Source: a virus. From it: a stretch of DNA of 64,000 nucleotides. The translations under genes and the position numbers were made by a program. The notes under the pieces were generated by a model. That model made no database searches. It had not been told where the DNA came from and saw only the letters and a program-made list of their open reading frames with translations. The stretch lies in IMG/VR virus record IMGVR_UViG_3300005590_000001, positions 1 to 64,000 of that record. One strand, written 5' to 3'. Below are positions 651 through 55,126 of this stretch, piece by piece; position 1 is the stretch's first letter; each line of letters starts with the position of its first letter.

Positions 651-2586
651 TAGTGGTTGGATAGATCATAAAGAGGGTGTTGCAGAAATTGAGGCTTTGA
701 AACCTCAGATTATTTACGGCGGTACTCCAGATATGCGACAATCTGGTGCCGGAAAAGTGCAACTCTTATACTCTGTCTATGATTCTTTTCCTGTTATTCA
801 CCAAGGTTCTGCTCCCTCTTGTGTTGCTTGTGCAACTGCTGGCGCTCTTGATTGTCTTCGAAAAACTGAAATTGCAGATGGTGATCGAGAAGATTTTGTA
901 AATTTCTCAGTCGAAGAATTCATCTATTTTGTCAGTAGAGTTATTATCGGCAAAAATAGACTGCGTGGTAGTGGTGGATCTTTAGTTTCTTGGGCTGTTG
1001 CTGGCTTAGAACAAATAGGATTTATTGTTAAAGATAAGTATGGAAACTTAGATCTTACTTCTTATAGTGCAAAAAGAGCAGTTGATTGGGGTGACGGACG
1101 TAATATTCCGGGTTCAGAATTAGTACAAATTGCTGCTGGACAAAAAATACTTGATTTTGTGCGGATTAAGTCTTACGAAGAGGCTCGTGATGCAATCTAT
1201 AATAAATATCCAGTGATAGTTGGAAGTCAGTATGGATACTCACGACAAAGAGATGCTGAAGGATTTGCTCTACAAAATACTAGATGGGCGCATTGTTATT
1301 TACCAAACTCTTTTATTTGGGGGGATGAGTTTAAAAAAATACAAGATTTGTCTGTTGGTGACGGAATTTATTCTCATGATGGTGAACTTACAGAAGTAAC
1401 AGAAATTAAAAAACAAAAATATTGTGGAGATATTTACAATATTCGTGTTTCTAATGGATTTCATAAAGTTACTAGCGACCATCCATTTTTAGTAAAATAT
1501 CAGTATTTACGCAACAGAGAATGTATTCCTTATGATGGATCAGTTTTAGATAATGTAACTTCTAATGTTGTGACAAAATCTAAAACCAAATTAGCATGGA
1601 TCAAGGCAAAAGATTTGTGTCAAGATGATTATCTAATAATGCCAAAACCTAAATTACCATCGCAATCTTTCATACCAGATAATAAAGAATTAAAGATTAC
1701 TCCTAATAGTGATTTAGCTTGGTTTTTTGGTATGTATTTGGGTGATGGTTACTCTACTAAAAATCATAAAATTATTTTTACGCAAAATATTAATGAAACC
1801 AATAATATTAATCGGCTTTTAAGAGTAGCTAAAAAATATTTTAATCTTCTTGGAACTGTAAAAAATAGGAAAATAAAAGAAAATTGCAATGCAGTAAATA
1901 TTATTTTCTACAGCGCAAAACTTTCTAACTTTATGCATAAGTGGTTTAAAACTAAAAATCTAAAAGAAATACCCCAATGGTTATTATCAAAAGAATGGGA
2001 CTTAAGATCTTTATTAATGGGTTTTAATGATTCTGACGGATGTTATTTAGATAACAAATGGTATAGGTTTTGTATCACAAACAGCTCTTATAAGTTGATA
2101 CAGCAATTTAACTTTATTATCAATTATTTAGGTTTTAAGTGTTGGTATAGAGAAATTGCCGGCGGTATGACCATCTTTAATAATAAAAAATATCAAAGAA
2201 AAAGGCAATATGCTTTGAATGTAAATCTTAAAAAGTTTAATAATTCTGATTTTTGTTACAATAATATTAAAAAAATAGAAAAGGAATTTTATTCTGATGA
2301 AATCATCACTCTTGAGACGGCAAATCATACTTATGTGGTAAACGGATCTTTATCCCATAACTGTATGTGGTGGTCTGGAGTAGACGATTCTGGTCGTAGA
2401 CCGGGAATTTGTAATCAGAATAGCTGGGGACGATCTTATCATTACGGTCCTAAACGACATAATCAGCCAGATGGATCTTTTTGGATTGATGCAGATAATG
2501 CCGATAAAATGTGCAGAAATGGAGATGCATGGGCTATTTCAAACTTTAAAGGATTTCCACTTAGAGCTGACTGGAGAATAATATGA
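634..2586 (+). CDS. Papain-like (C1) cysteine peptidase interrupted by an intein
   Basis: QGSAPSCVACA (oxyanion Gln and catalytic Cys), WAH|CM catalytic His, QNSWG motif. Confidence 0.85.
   Translation: MIDPNDSGWIDHKEGVAEIEALKPQIIYGGTPDMRQSGAGKVQLLYSVYDSFPVIHQGSAPSCVACATAGALDCLRKTEIADGDREDFVNFSVEEFIYFVSRVIIGKNRLRGSGGSLVSWAVAGLEQIGFIVKDKYGNLDLTSYSAKRAVDWGDGRNIPGSELVQIAAGQKILDFVRIKSYEEARDAIYNKYPVIVGSQYGYSRQRDAEGFALQNTRWAHCYLPNSFIWGDEFKKIQDLSVGDGIYSHDGELTEVTEIKKQKYCGDIYNIRVSNGFHKVTSDHPFLVKYQYLRNRECIPYDGSVLDNVTSNVVTKSKTKLAWIKAKDLCQDDYLIMPKPKLPSQSFIPDNKELKITPNSDLAWFFGMYLGDGYSTKNHKIIFTQNINETNNINRLLRVAKKYFNLLGTVKNRKIKENCNAVNIIFYSAKLSNFMHKWFKTKNLKEIPQWLLSKEWDLRSLLMGFNDSDGCYLDNKWYRFCITNSSYKLIQQFNFIINYLGFKCWYREIAGGMTIFNNKKYQRKRQYALNVNLKKFNNSDFCYNNIKKIEKEFYSDEIITLETANHTYVVNGSLSHNCMWWSGVDDSGRRPGICNQNSWGRSYHYGPKRHNQPDGSFWIDADNADKMCRNGDAWAISNFKGFPLRADWRII
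1294..2361 (+). mobile_element. Cis intein with LAGLIDADG endonuclease in the C1 peptidase
   Basis: Starts CYLPNS, block B VTSDHPF, FFGMYLGDG and LMGFNDSDG motifs, ends SHN followed by +1 Cys. Confidence 0.92.
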
Positions 2587-4479: not shown

Positions 4480-4516
4480 AAACCGCAAGAATCGTGAAGA
4501 TTTTTGCGGTTTTTTT
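4480..4516. terminator. Intrinsic terminator, likely bidirectional, between convergent operons
   Basis: AAACCGCAAGAATC-loop-GATTTTTGCGGTTT hairpin followed by a T run. Confidence 0.8.
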
Positions 4517-4526
4517 AGTTGGTTTC

Positions 4527-4976
4527 TCAATAATGAGAACCGAGCACCGACAAGACACCGGCGACGGCCTCTGGCGTAAGTTTTGTATGTTTGTATAAAG
4601 TCTTTTCTGAAATTTCTTCGCATGCAAATTTAATGATATAATCTAAATCTTTACTAGAAATTTTTCTCATTAATATATTATAATCAGAATAAAAAGAACT
4701 ATTTTTAATCATTCTTGTAAAATTAAAATTAGTTCTATGCTGAATACGAAATTTAATCTCTTTGTCACAAACACGTAACATATGATAATAAATTCTATAA
4801 TAAATAAATTTTAATTTATTGTTAGATTTTTTTGGATTAAATCTATCCCAAATCTTGTGACAAATAATAAACATTTCTGAGATAATTTCTTCTTTTTCAA
4901 AAGTATTTTTCATATATCTCGGTAAATGTAAATACATATCATCAGCAATATCTAAAAATTCCTTTTCAGAAATCAT
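4527..4976 (-). CDS. Sigma-70 region-2-like protein (possible phage sigma factor)
   Basis: EEIISEMFI...WDRFNPKK...KFIYYRI resembles sigma region 2.2-2.4. Confidence 0.45.
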   Translation of the reverse strand: MISEKEFLDIADDMYLHLPRYMKNTFEKEEIISEMFIICHKIWDRFNPKKSNNKLKFIYYRIYYHMLRVCDKEIKFRIQHRTNFNFTRMIKNSSFYSDYNILMRKISSKDLDYIIKFACEEISEKTLYKHTKLTPEAVAGVLSVLGSHY

Positions 4977-51443: not shown

Positions 51444-52073
51444 ATGACATATAAAGTATCTGATGATGATTTTAAATCATCAATTGAAAAATCAAACAAT
51501 ATAGGTGAAGCACTTAAAAATATGGGGTACACAACAGCATCACAAAATTATAGGATGTTCAATAAAAGAGTAAAACAATTAAATATTGATATTAGTCATT
51601 TTAATGCAAAACGCTGGGAGCGTAATAAGTTTATAAAAAAACCTATTGAAGAATTTCTTCAAAAGAATCGGTGTGTGAATAGTAGTAATCTAAAGAAAAG
51701 GTTGATTAATGAAGGCTTCTTAGAAAACAAATGTTATGAATGTAACATAACAGACTGGCAAAATAAAAAACTTGTAATGCATTTAGAACACAAAGATGGT
51801 GATCCTCTTAATAATGAATTAAGCAATTTAACTTTATTATGTCCTAATTGTCATTCACAAACAAGTACATATTGTCGTGGACAAAAAAGAAAAAAACACA
51901 CAAAAAACAAAAGAAATAAACCTAGATTTCATTTAAGAAAAGTTGAGCGTCCACCTCTTGAAGTTTTAGAACAAGATGTGAAAATTTTAGGTTATTTAGG
52001 TACTGGAAGAAAATATAAAGTTAGTGATAACGCTATTAGAAAATGGATCAAATATTATAAAAATAGCCCTTGA
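51444..52073 (+). CDS. HNH endonuclease, paralog of 43982-44647
   Basis: CYEC...HLEHKDGDPLNNELSNLTLLCPNCH; VSDNAIRKW. Confidence 0.9.
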   Translation: MTYKVSDDDFKSSIEKSNNIGEALKNMGYTTASQNYRMFNKRVKQLNIDISHFNAKRWERNKFIKKPIEEFLQKNRCVNSSNLKKRLINEGFLENKCYECNITDWQNKKLVMHLEHKDGDPLNNELSNLTLLCPNCHSQTSTYCRGQKRKKHTKNKRNKPRFHLRKVERPPLEVLEQDVKILGYLGTGRKYKVSDNAIRKWIKYYKNSP

Positions 52074-52678: not shown

Positions 52679-53825
52679 TTATTTTTAAAAAGTTTTCTAT
52701 CCACCCTTCTCTCCAAAGCCTCATACTTTTTTTCTATTTGAAATATAATGCTGAGAATTTGTGCCAACATCAGAAAGATTATACCCGGCCACATATGGTA
52801 TGGATATTTATCTGTGGATATTATTAGACTAATTCCACCAATAATTAGTAGAAGGATCCAAATATTTTTCATCATTGATATACAATCCACGCCATATACG
52901 GCGGACTTGCCAAATTACATAGAGGATGAAGATAGATACAAAGATATAAGTATCAATTTCCATCCTCGTGAAATTTGTGAACATTAAGAATTTCATACTG
53001 TTGCTGTTTCAAAGATTGAATGATGGCCTGTACTTGCGGCCCTCTGCAAATTTTAGCTCCGTAAGAATAATCTTCGAAGTCTTCATAGTAAATGTGTTCT
53101 CGATATGAGATTACGTAGAGAATCTTTTCATCGTCCATTTTCTTCAGACTCAGTTATTGTTTCTTCATCAAGTTGGATCCATTCAAAATGACTGGTAGTG
53201 GGATTATATCGGCCGACTCCAGCTTCTACAGCGTCTATTTCCCAAAGATCATTATTGATCGATAATGAAATATTACATACTATAAACCAGAATAAACTAG
53301 ATAAAAGTACTCCAAGTTCGAAATCTTGATCACGCATCTTCAGAATCTTCCTCAAAAAGAAAGTAACGAATCTTGTAAGCACCGAGATGAATATTTTCGG
53401 CTAAATATTTATCGGCGACTTCTTCGCAGTTAAAGGTTAGGAATTCATTTTTGTGTTCCAGAGGAATAACGACGGCGAATTGCTCTTCGTTCATAATAGA
53501 ATCCTTTTGGTTTGATAATATACGCATACTAGTCTACCACATTATAGTTTTCAAACATAAATATTATTCCAATTGCATCTATGAGAATATCCTAACATTC
53601 TCAAGTACCAAGGAATTTCAGGTAAATCTTCTGGTGTCAATCCCGGTTCCCAAAAATGGCAGTTATAAACACCCGGTATTCTAGTACCTCTATAATCACG
53701 GGCCTCTTCATTAAGACACCAAAGTGTTACTGCACCACGCAAAAAGAAACAGTCTGAACATGACTTCTTTTCAGCATCTGGTTTTTTAGATTCATGAATA
53801 AATCTTTGCATTGTTTACTCCAAAG

Positions 53826-54291
53826 TAGCACCGGTGGGAGTCGAACCCACATGGGGTATTCACCCCCTCAGATTTTAAGTCTGCATACCACTACAGTTTT
53901 CACTGCCTAAGTTTTTTACCCCTTTAATTCCTGCTGAACTTATCCGAGTTTCTATGAACTGAATCATATTCAGGGGTACAGGGTTTAGTTTGTGGTCTGG
54001 ACTATCCCTTTAGCTTTGCCTAAGCTTTAGCTAGGTGATTATAGTCTCTGCACCTTCTGTGTTGTCTGGCTTTATTTATCCCACTTGAATAAGTACCAGC
54101 TTAGGGTGTATCTAGAATTCCAACACAGCTTGGCTCAGGGTTCCCATACGAGTTAGCATAAAGCTAAGTCATCCTATTTGCTCACGCTCAAGGTTTTCTT
54201 CACGCTTAGGGTTCTCTGAATTTACACCATTTAGACATGGCTTTCACCATGAATGCACCTTATGATGCGTATGCCGTTCCGCCACGATGCC
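53826..54291 (-). tRNA. tRNA-Leu(TAA) split by a group I intron (exon 1 54291-54265; exon 2 53883-53826)
   Basis: Joined exons give a type II cloverleaf: TCAGA-CTTAAAA-TCTGA and variable arm GGGG-TGAATA-CCCC. Confidence 0.9.
53884..54264 (-). mobile_element. ORF-less group I intron (IC3-like), 381 nt, inserted at tRNA position 27/28
   Basis: P AAATTCAGAGAAC, Q AACCCTGAGCCAAG, R GAAGGTGCAGAGACT, S AAAGGGATAGTCC; P1 GCAU/GUGC with U.G pair; terminal G. Confidence 0.92.
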
Positions 54292-55126
54292 ATTAATTAC
54301 TTATTTTCATTCTTTTTAATATCAACCATAGTATCTCCAAGCAATATCAATACTGCTACAGTAGTTGCACCACACAATAATCCAGATACAATACAGCCTG
54401 TTCCCGCAACTTCAGGATCTATTGCTAAGGTTTTTACTAAATATTCATGTAAGAAGGTTAAACCTAAAACAACAAATGGAAGGACCATAATAGATCCAAT
54501 CATTAACATTCGAATAAATATTTTCATACAGACTCCCCAAAAAGTTTCTCACAATCTTCAAAAGTAACTCTGATAGGATTTTTCTTGACCAGAGAAATCT
54601 CTACAAAAGTTCGATGAATTTTCTTAATCTTGATTTTACCGTACTCACTATGCTGTGCAATGGTACCAACTTTAAGTACTGGTGTTTGTGTTTTCATGAT
54701 AATGATATCAATCCCAATTCTAAAACCTCGAAACCTAAATCTGTCAACAGTTTTGATTGTTTTTCTAAATTGTCACACGGCCAATCTGGTTGATATGAAT
54801 ATACAGCTTCCATATCTTCGCTAAAATCTGGTATATCTAATCCTTCACCAGATTCATCTAAGTATCCATGTTTATCCCAAAATTCTTTTTTGGTTATACA
54901 CCAAGACAAAGTTTTCTTATCGCTTTTCATAATACCACCGCCGGGTTTCATTTCCCAGTGAGCGTCATCAATGAAAGGTAGGGCAACGAATCCTTCAAAG
55001 GGTAGCTTTTTTTCTCTTGCAGATTCAAATGCGGCTTTGACCCAACTTACAGCCTCTTTTGGAATACGTTCGGCACGAAGAGAGAATCCTTCCAACTCTT
55101 CGTACCAATCTTCAAACGTATCGTAC

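Follow-up and report, generated by a model that had tools for sequence, protein, structure and literature searches.

Does a group I intron in a transfer RNA (tRNA) gene have to lie in the anticodon loop? The question is raised by a stretch of viral DNA (IMG/VR record IMGVR_UViG_3300005590_000001, positions 1 to 64,000; hereafter the window, 64,000 nucleotides (nt) in length), in which a tRNA-Leu(UAA) gene on the minus strand is split into a 27-nt exon 1, a 381-nt intron and a 58-nt exon 2. The intron sits between tRNA positions 27 and 28 (site 27/28), at the first pair of the anticodon stem and not in the anticodon loop. Judged by its sequence and by comparison with its relatives, it is very probably genuine and intact, a group I intron of the compact (IC3-like) type of tRNA introns, located in the only tRNA-Leu(UAA) gene of the phage, and it is predicted to splice. 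The whole virus genome (171,987 bp) has direct terminal repeats, seven further tRNA genes and no second tRNA-Leu(UAA); in its long open reading frames (ORFs), UUA and UUG make up 41% and 17% of the leucine codons (58% together).

A tRNA-Leu(UAA) gene split at position 27/28

The gene is laid out as follows, with the evidence for each part in brackets:

54291-54265, minus strand: exon 1, tRNA positions 1-27, 27 nt (ARAGORN cloverleaf of the joined exons; alignment with 14 relatives)
54264-53884, minus strand: group I intron, 381 nt, no ORF (Rfam RF00028; family profile; covariation; DNA contigs that skip it)
53883-53826, minus strand: exon 2, tRNA positions 28-73, 58 nt, beginning with CAGACUUAAAAUCUGA (ARAGORN; alignment with 14 relatives)

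Exon 1 holds the 5′ strand of the acceptor stem (GGCAUCG), U8, G9, the whole D arm, A26 and U27, and ends with ACGCAU. The intron starts with CAUAAGGUGC, ends with GGUAUG and contains no ORF of ≥ 40 amino acids. Exon 2 opens with CAGA-CUUAAAA-UCUGA, so that the 7-nt anticodon loop (CUUAAAA) is intact within it, followed by a long variable arm, the T arm, the 3′ strand of the acceptor stem and the discriminator base. When the exons were joined in silico, ARAGORN called the product as a tRNA-Leu(taa) of 86 nt; its class II cloverleaf is perfect, with anticodon UAA, an acceptor stem of 7 bp, a long variable arm and A73 as the discriminator. The unspliced gene was called neither by ARAGORN nor by the Rfam tRNA model, both of which call four other tRNAs in the window. 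A scan for promoters and terminators around the gene gave nothing above shuffled sequences. CCA is not encoded at 53826 (the discriminator A is followed by CUU), while most relatives in the alignment described below encode ACCA.

The same place can be found in natural populations without the intron. Three DNA runs (X1, X2 and X3), marine-sediment metagenomes from three studies, hold this stretch. Only the intron-bearing form is present in X1, which is probably the sample of origin; X2 and X3 share an identical 502-nt intron-bearing contig (53854-54355; depth 11.2 and 7.4, respectively) and also a 121-nt contig with the same end points that joins 53881 to 54263 and skips exactly 381 nt (depth 24.5 and 31.2). 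Across the three samples the intron-bearing sequence shows zero differences over 502 nt. As both the intron and exon 2 start with CA, the DNA join has a slack of 2 nt, and one of its registers, 53883|54265, is the predicted exon junction (...CGCAU|CAGAC...). Upstream of the tRNA, at 54295 and 54325, G replaces A in the intron-less contig, which therefore represents the same locus in a slightly different haplotype. The predicted junction also occurs uninterrupted (ACGCAUCAGACU) in a related tRNA-Leu on another viral contig (L019). The intron is optional in this natural population, which fits either a recent gain or a precise loss.

A sequence-only reading of the window had proposed most of this layout, i.e., an insertion at 27/28, a 27-nt 5′ exon whose terminal GCAU pairs with intron GUGC with a U.G pair at the splice site, a terminal G at 53884 directly before exon 2, an intact anticodon loop, an intron free of ORFs, the junction given above, and a gene that tRNA finders would miss. 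All of these points held: the site by the cloverleaf, the alignment with relatives and the intron-less allele, the pairing by the fold of the isolated P1-P2 segment (z −3.2), the terminal G by a spacing after P9 that is kept in relatives, and the remainder by the observations already listed.

Two features of the same samples stand apart from the intron. At 53506-53521, in the small-ORF region downstream of the tRNA, a contig in X2 and X3 swaps 14 nt for 204 other letters, an indel polymorphism. The other lies at 53822-53861, where loose ends from X2 and X3 reveal a further tRNA-Leu(UAA)-like gene, uninterrupted and with the anticodon stem GCGGA/UCCGC; it shares only its 3′ part with the window tRNA, and hence belongs to a related phage or an allele in the same samples. 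In addition, the 3′ end of the intron (P9a and the 3′ strand of P9) together with exon 2 mimics a tRNA with a pseudo-D arm, probably by coincidence, and GGCAGUG could even pair at 6 of 7 positions with the 3′ strand of the acceptor stem. A complete tRNA made of these parts (53907-53827, minus strand; tRNA-Sec model of Rfam, 31.6 bits, below the cut-off) was rejected, as it has no D stem and no ARAGORN call.

The group I core and a family of related introns

Against the Rfam model Intron_gpI (RF00028), the check that had been proposed from the letters of the window, positions 54274-53977 (minus strand) align end to end (model positions 1-253 of 253; 36.2 bits; E-value 2.3e-7 for the region and 8.6e-9 for the 172-kb genome). 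When the 14 relatives alone, with the window left out, were used to build a profile, it had a single match in the genome, 54290-53825 (minus strand), at full length (166 bits, E-value 3e-50). The helices, assigned by hand, are listed below.

54255-54268, minus strand: P1, exon GCAU (tRNA 24-27) plus intron C against the guide GGUGC; splice-site pair U27(54265).G(54258)
54236-54251, minus strand: P2 hairpin, 6 bp, GAAA tetraloop at 54242-54245; five of the six pairs with compensatory changes
54224-54229, minus strand: P3 5′ strand, pairs with 54033-54038; six of six pairs with compensatory changes in the family
54033-54038, minus strand: P3 3′ strand (family covariation)
54134-54220, minus strand: P4-P5 domain, P4 54214-54220/54134-54140, P5 54209-54211/54143-54145
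54053-54133, minus strand: P6 region, P6 of 2 bp, P6a of 8 bp (54121-54128/54057-54064) and an extension
54041-54048, minus strand: P7 5′ strand, G-A bulge-GACUAU
53999-54005, minus strand: P7 3′ strand, AUAGUCC; compensatory changes in the relatives L063, L073, L041 and L097
54012-54032, minus strand: P8 hairpin (family alignment and covariation)
53887-53996, minus strand: P9 domain, P9 ACCAC (53992-53996)/GUGGU (53887-53891), with an 84-nt insertion
53884, minus strand: terminal (omega) G, 3 nt past the P9 3′ strand and directly before exon 2

The structure was evaluated on an alignment of 15 sequences (the window and the 14 relatives; alignment A2), using the 51 pairs drawn from P1 to P9a and, as controls, partners slid by 1-3 columns and 500 shuffles. 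Pairing was possible in 88.4% of the cells, against 35-42% with slid partners, both sides change in 33 of the 51 pairs, and 0 of 500 shuffles reached any of the observed measures. Each of the helices P3, P4, P6, P7 and P8 is backed by compensatory changes, which are also seen in P9 and P9a, and P3 is wholly replaced in several members (UGGUGU/UCACC[U/C] vs. GAAACC/GGUUUC, CUUCUU/AGGAAG and others). For P1 the changes reach into the exon: position 24 and its guide partner are G-C in seven and A-U in eight sequences and move in step with the D-stem pair 11:24 (GGCGG...ACGCAU|..GGUGC vs. GGUGG...ACACAU|..GGUGUG), which indicates that P1 is really built from these exon nucleotides. The U at −1, in a U.G wobble within P1, and the G at the 3′ end of the intron are kept in all 11 complete members inserted at 27/28.

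Several features are those of a compact IC3-type intron, a type that has neither P5abc nor P7.1/P7.2, namely a J7/3 of 2-3 nt, GAAA loops in P2 and P9a (the latter a hairpin at 53893-53906; P9 domain fold z −2.0), and an exact 11-nt GAAA-receptor motif in P5 (CCUAAG, 54205-54210/UAUGG, 54144-54148). With 381 nt the intron exceeds its compact relatives (189-222 nt) through extra insertions in P5, P6 and P9, of which the P5 extension (~56 nt, 54149-54204) is specific to this phage. An archaeal-type, protein-spliced bulge-helix-bulge tRNA intron is ruled out, the insert being a 381-nt group I ribozyme by structure, with P1 and a terminal G. A second Intron_gpI match in the window (4486-4667, plus strand; 21 bits) was discarded as spurious; its position coincides with a bidirectional terminator hairpin flanked by convergent ORFs, and a P7 motif is lacking.

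Relatives were sought with an 18-nt block (P7-J7/3-P3′) and then, in viral and metagenome contigs, with a pattern made of the P9a loop, the 3′ strand of P9 and the start of exon 2. Brute-force use of ARAGORN over all U/G splice-site pairs was too permissive alone, and filters for P1 and the D arm were added. The 18-nt block is present exactly in 19 viral contigs. Introns outside the anticodon loop form a previously undescribed family of at least 16 distinct genes, all of them tRNA-Leu(UAA) with U at −1 and a terminal G 2-5 nt past P9 (a spacing found in 15 relatives outside the loop and kept in those at canonical sites as well), and the exons of the 14 relatives in the alignment are homologous. 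The 27/28 class has at least 11 distinct complete genes (the window, L014 (the same as L015 and L089), L026, L041, L044, L063, L073, L097, L105, L110 and L123) and two truncated members (L031 and L032). Four genes make up the 25/26 class (L013:10307-10612, L022:5854-6159 (= L114), L025:6781-7086 and L106:5841-6143), with an exon 1 ending in GACAU|, the guide GUGUC and an exon 2 beginning with AA[C/G]AGAC. One further gene (L028, about 1100-1500, plus strand), in which exon 1 ends with ...GACGCU|, the intron starts with G and a terminal G precedes GCAGAC, would need G at −1 if placed at 27/28 and is best read as a putative 26/27 insertion. In the 27/28 and 25/26 classes CAU| is paired to a GUG guide (ACGCAU|, ACACAU|, GACAU|), and the sole 26/27 gene has CGCU| with a different guide, CGGC.

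The site had been suspected of being new or rare, and a search of phage and metagenome contigs for further 27/28 introns had been suggested with it. The position does fall outside all sites described in the literature within reach, but this phage is not a unique case, given the at least 11 distinct members (its own included) and the 26/27 and 25/26 classes. The same core also occurs in tRNA-Leu(UAA) genes of viral contigs at the classical site 34/35 (L012 and L017) and, one position before it, at 33/34 (L003, L004/L010, L018 and L019), where exon 1 ends with ...GGACU|, the guide is GGGUC and exon 2 is UAAAAUCC. A tree of 24 intron cores (173 columns) left most branches unresolved: there is support for the 25/26 class as a clade (97/96), the 27/28 class could not be resolved into a single group, and a single clade of all stem-site introns is borderline rejected (approximately unbiased (AU) test, p 0.044). 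On account of this poor resolution, no direction or number of site changes is drawn from the tree.

Outside these sets, blastn of the whole feature against 50,697 GenBank phage records gave no match, nor did the exact exon-2 word in viral contigs. One narrow pattern run against 185,579 species genomes had 50 matches, none with an intron according to the family profile; they were rejected as members and are either D arms of ordinary tRNA-Leu genes that the pattern happens to fit or chance matches. The pattern GAAARYNNTAGT also fits ordinary tRNA-Leu D arms. The core was additionally observed in other phage tRNA genes, i.e., a tRNA(CAU) at 33/34, a probable tRNA-Arg(UCU) and a probable tRNA-Ile (L006/L008, L011/L020, L021), with the probable tRNA-Ile standing in tandem before a second intron-bearing tRNA-Leu. 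An ORF with an HNH-like CPNCH motif at its end terminates shortly before the split tRNA in L011/L020, and a PP-loop ATPase gene (L015:1710-2381, plus strand; ATP_bind_3, a family including tRNA-Ile lysidine synthase; E-value 2e-30) lies 354 nt upstream of a 27/28 tRNA-Leu.

Predicted splicing, competing explanations and spread

From the sequences compared we infer catalytic activity, an order of folding and a mode of spread. After transcription from the minus strand, the guide GGUGC would pair with G24-C25-A26-U27 of the exon (the 3′ strand of the D stem plus positions 26 and 27), forming P1 with the U27.G wobble. This P1 (C23/G24-U27) would exclude the D stem, in which positions 10-12 pair with 23-25, until the exons are joined. 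Free guanosine would then attack after U27, the terminal G (53884, 3 nt past P9) would enter the G site, and the exons would be ligated to ...ACGCAU-CAGACUUAAAAUCUGA..., upon which the D stem and the U27-A43 pair could form, giving a normal class II tRNA that reads UUA and UUG. The longer P1, with 4-5 exon pairs, may compensate for the loss of an exon-bridging anticodon stem.

A number of observations weigh against an intact intron that splices in this manner. It is known here from DNA alone, and its catalysis is predicted. The Intron_gpI score of 36.2 bits is lower than the Rfam gathering score of 50, which is the curators' threshold and not a structural feature; according to Williams 2020 (bioRxiv 10.1101/2020.01.27.920355) no Rfam seed sequence is bacterial, and 18-20 bits were used for tRNA introns. 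This copy has an A.C mismatch in P4 and U-U mismatches at both ends of P3, and carries three large peripheral insertions (~56, 60 and 84 nt) that are absent from compact relatives. The exon-bridging anticodon stem is unavailable, as it lies almost wholly inside exon 2, and P10 has 1-2 bp at most, none convincing. The intron-less allele outnumbers the intron-bearing one in X2 and X3, and the shorter side of the DNA join has only 28 (+2) letters, a length prone to joins across organisms; such a join is unlikely in view of end points common to both contig forms, a difference of exactly 381 nt and the recurrence in two runs.

The alternative that survives best, although we consider it improbable, is that splicing at 27/28 depends on a helper protein, either an RNA chaperone from host or phage or a maturase-like factor, the bridging anticodon stem being absent. 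The ribozymes of Azoarcus and Anabaena work best with an anticodon-stem context by the splice sites (PMC3895272), and here no comparable inter-exon helix exists near the splice sites and P10 is minimal, but P1 is longer than in Azoarcus (4-5 exon pairs vs. 3) and no linked cofactor candidate is present, as the flanking ORFs have no Pfam match and the neighbours vary among family members. Distinctly less probable still is a catalytically dead or impaired copy, i.e., a tRNA pseudogene tolerated through the host tRNA-Leu(UAA), with the intron-less allele as the working one. The mismatches in P3 and P4, the three insertions, the score below the Rfam cut-off and the greater depth of the intron-less allele would all agree with it, as would peripheral insertions that fold no better than shuffles (z −0.6 and −1.2). 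Against this, all conserved core positions of the family are kept (the G-site pairs of P7, the purines of J3/4, J4/5 and J8/7, the U.G pair and the terminal G), the copy has the GAAA loops and the exact 11-nt receptor, most family members share the U-U ends of P3, and the intron-bearing sequence is unchanged over 502 nt in three samples.

Splice sites shifted by 1-2 nt (28/29 or 29/30) are very improbable. The 2-nt slack of the DNA join leaves three registers that give an identical mature sequence, but only 27/28 combines a U before the 5′ site, paired with G in P1, with a G at the 3′ end of the intron, and the 11 complete 27/28 members keep both even where the CA repeat is missing (intron UAUAAC..., exon 2 UGGAC). 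A chimeric assembly of a tRNA gene and an unrelated intron can practically be dismissed, since beyond the general risk of metagenome assembly nothing speaks for it, and identical intron-bearing contigs were recovered in three runs from three studies and 14 independent relatives have the same layout.

For an intact intron that splices at 27/28, the relatives also bear on how it came to this position. Each of the introns at 25/26, 26/27 and 27/28 is inserted directly after a U that pairs with its matching guide, which suggests that new sites may have been reached by guide-directed retargeting, either through reverse splicing or through co-evolution of guide and site. The trans mobilization by nearby HNH genes that the sequence-only reading had considered found no support. 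Neither a Pfam match nor a nuclease domain was found in either of the flanking ORFs (54297-54527 and 53551-53811), and the nearest HNH match (51444-52073) is weak (E-value 1e-3, below the cut-off), 1.75 kb away and on the other strand. Among ten ORFs neighbouring family members, only that of L025 is an adjacent HNH_3/NUMOD endonuclease gene. This free-standing gene (HNH_3 with NUMOD1/NUMOD4; L025:7097-7927, minus strand) ends 11 nt upstream of a 25/26 tRNA-Leu and is a candidate for collaborative homing.

A broader scenario, which we put forward tentatively and regard as possible rather than likely, is that an endonuclease-free lineage of IC3-type phage ribozymes has departed from the anticodon loop and shifts between sites on the 5′ side of tRNA-Leu(UAA), its GUG guide re-pairing with nearby ...CAU|, and splices without an exon-bridging stem. 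If so, the spread of the lineage would point to reverse splicing or guide-site co-evolution and not to endonuclease homing, the competition between P1 and the D stem could make splicing a timing or quality gate on tRNA maturation, and sediment populations with and without the intron would show its mobility in progress. With related introns at four or more sites inside 10 nt of a single gene, a matching guide for each, and a plus/minus polymorphism in the wild, the family is a concrete system in which to address the old debate on whether reverse splicing carries group I introns to new sites.

Relation to known tRNA and phage introns

At 27/28, this IC3-like tRNA group I intron occupies a site beyond those described in the literature within reach; no report of a group I intron in a tRNA stem was found, in a search that left subscription journals largely outside. 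According to a 2014 review (PMC3984707), all phage group I introns known at that time were in protein-coding genes and none in tRNA genes, despite the many that phages carry. A conserved family in the anticodon and D stems indicates that the anticodon loop is not a requirement for tRNA group I introns. It also has practical consequences for annotation: the leucine tRNA most needed by this phage is invisible to ARAGORN and Rfam, tRNAscan-SE 2.0 was not designed for group I introns, and, as the main mapping pipeline tests only eight loop positions, tRNA sets from phages and metagenomes are probably under-called.

Collaborative homing, in which an ORF-less phage intron is combined with a neighbouring endonuclease, is known from F-CphI and psbA of cyanophage S-PM2 (PMC6083498) and from mobE and I-TevIII of T4 (PMC2790892). 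The present locus resembles these pairs in having an ORF-less group I intron in a phage gene and intron-plus and intron-minus alleles in the population, and differs from them in that no endonuclease gene flanks the intron.

With the Azoarcus tRNA-Ile(CAU) intron (Ile2.5Ug; IC3; PDB 1U6B family), the core of whose guide, GUG, pairs with CAU and is followed by cleavage after the U (PMC2709566), the intron shares the GUG/CAU recognition (GCAU/GUGC or ACAU/GUGU in the family), the compact core and the GAAA tetraloops L2 and L9, with the receptor motif seen here only in P5. In Azoarcus, however, CAU is the anticodon (site 36/37), whereas here it is C25-A26-U27 of tRNA-Leu. Both the Azoarcus and the Anabaena intron have a 5-bp anticodon stem that spans the two exons at a distance of 3 nt from either splice site (PMC3895272), and it is reported as needed or important for their activity (Zaug 1993, as cited in PMC3895272). 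Unlike in the IC3-type tRNA introns Leu.3Ug, Ile2.5Ug, Arg.5Ug and fMet.2Ug, the insertion is not inside the 7-nt anticodon loop and no anticodon stem connects the exons; only U27-A43 would be an inter-exon pair, while pairs 28-31/39-42 lie inside exon 2. The family thereby provides a natural test of whether compact tRNA ribozymes need an exon-bridging anticodon stem, a question that bears on ribozyme engineering, i.e., trans-splicing and the circular-RNA designs derived from the Anabaena and Azoarcus introns.

A close counterpart is the classical tRNA-Leu(UAA) intron, with which the host gene, a compact ORF-less ribozyme, the U.G pair at the splice site, the terminal G 3 nt past P9 and the GAAA loops L2 and L9 are shared. 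The likeness to the cyanobacterial or plastid intron that the sequence-only reading had noted was assessed indirectly, through tRNA-Leu introns at canonical sites in viral contigs: the 18-nt core block is identical in the introns at 34/35 (L012, L017) and 33/34 (L003, L004, L018, L019), and the best core identity is to L019 (74% over 171 core columns). The differences are the site, which at 27/28 is 7 nt upstream of 34/35, a P1 formed with D-stem nucleotides and positions 26 and 27 instead of anticodon-loop nucleotides, and the extra insertions in P5, P6 and P9 (381 nt vs. roughly 190-250 nt).

The widest survey available for comparison (Williams 2020) extended the four classical classes (Leu.3Ug, Arg.5Ug, fMet.2Ug and Ile2.5Ug, all IC3) to 21, all of which are within the anticodon loop, the eight positions of which were the only ones tested by its pipeline, and the sole group I intron mentioned outside that loop is in the T-loop of tmRNA. 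The introns described here are of the same ribozyme type and pass the same validation (U at −1, a terminal G, a regular tRNA after removal), and are set apart from the 21 classes by their insertion sites, 25/26, 26/27 and 27/28, outside the anticodon loop.

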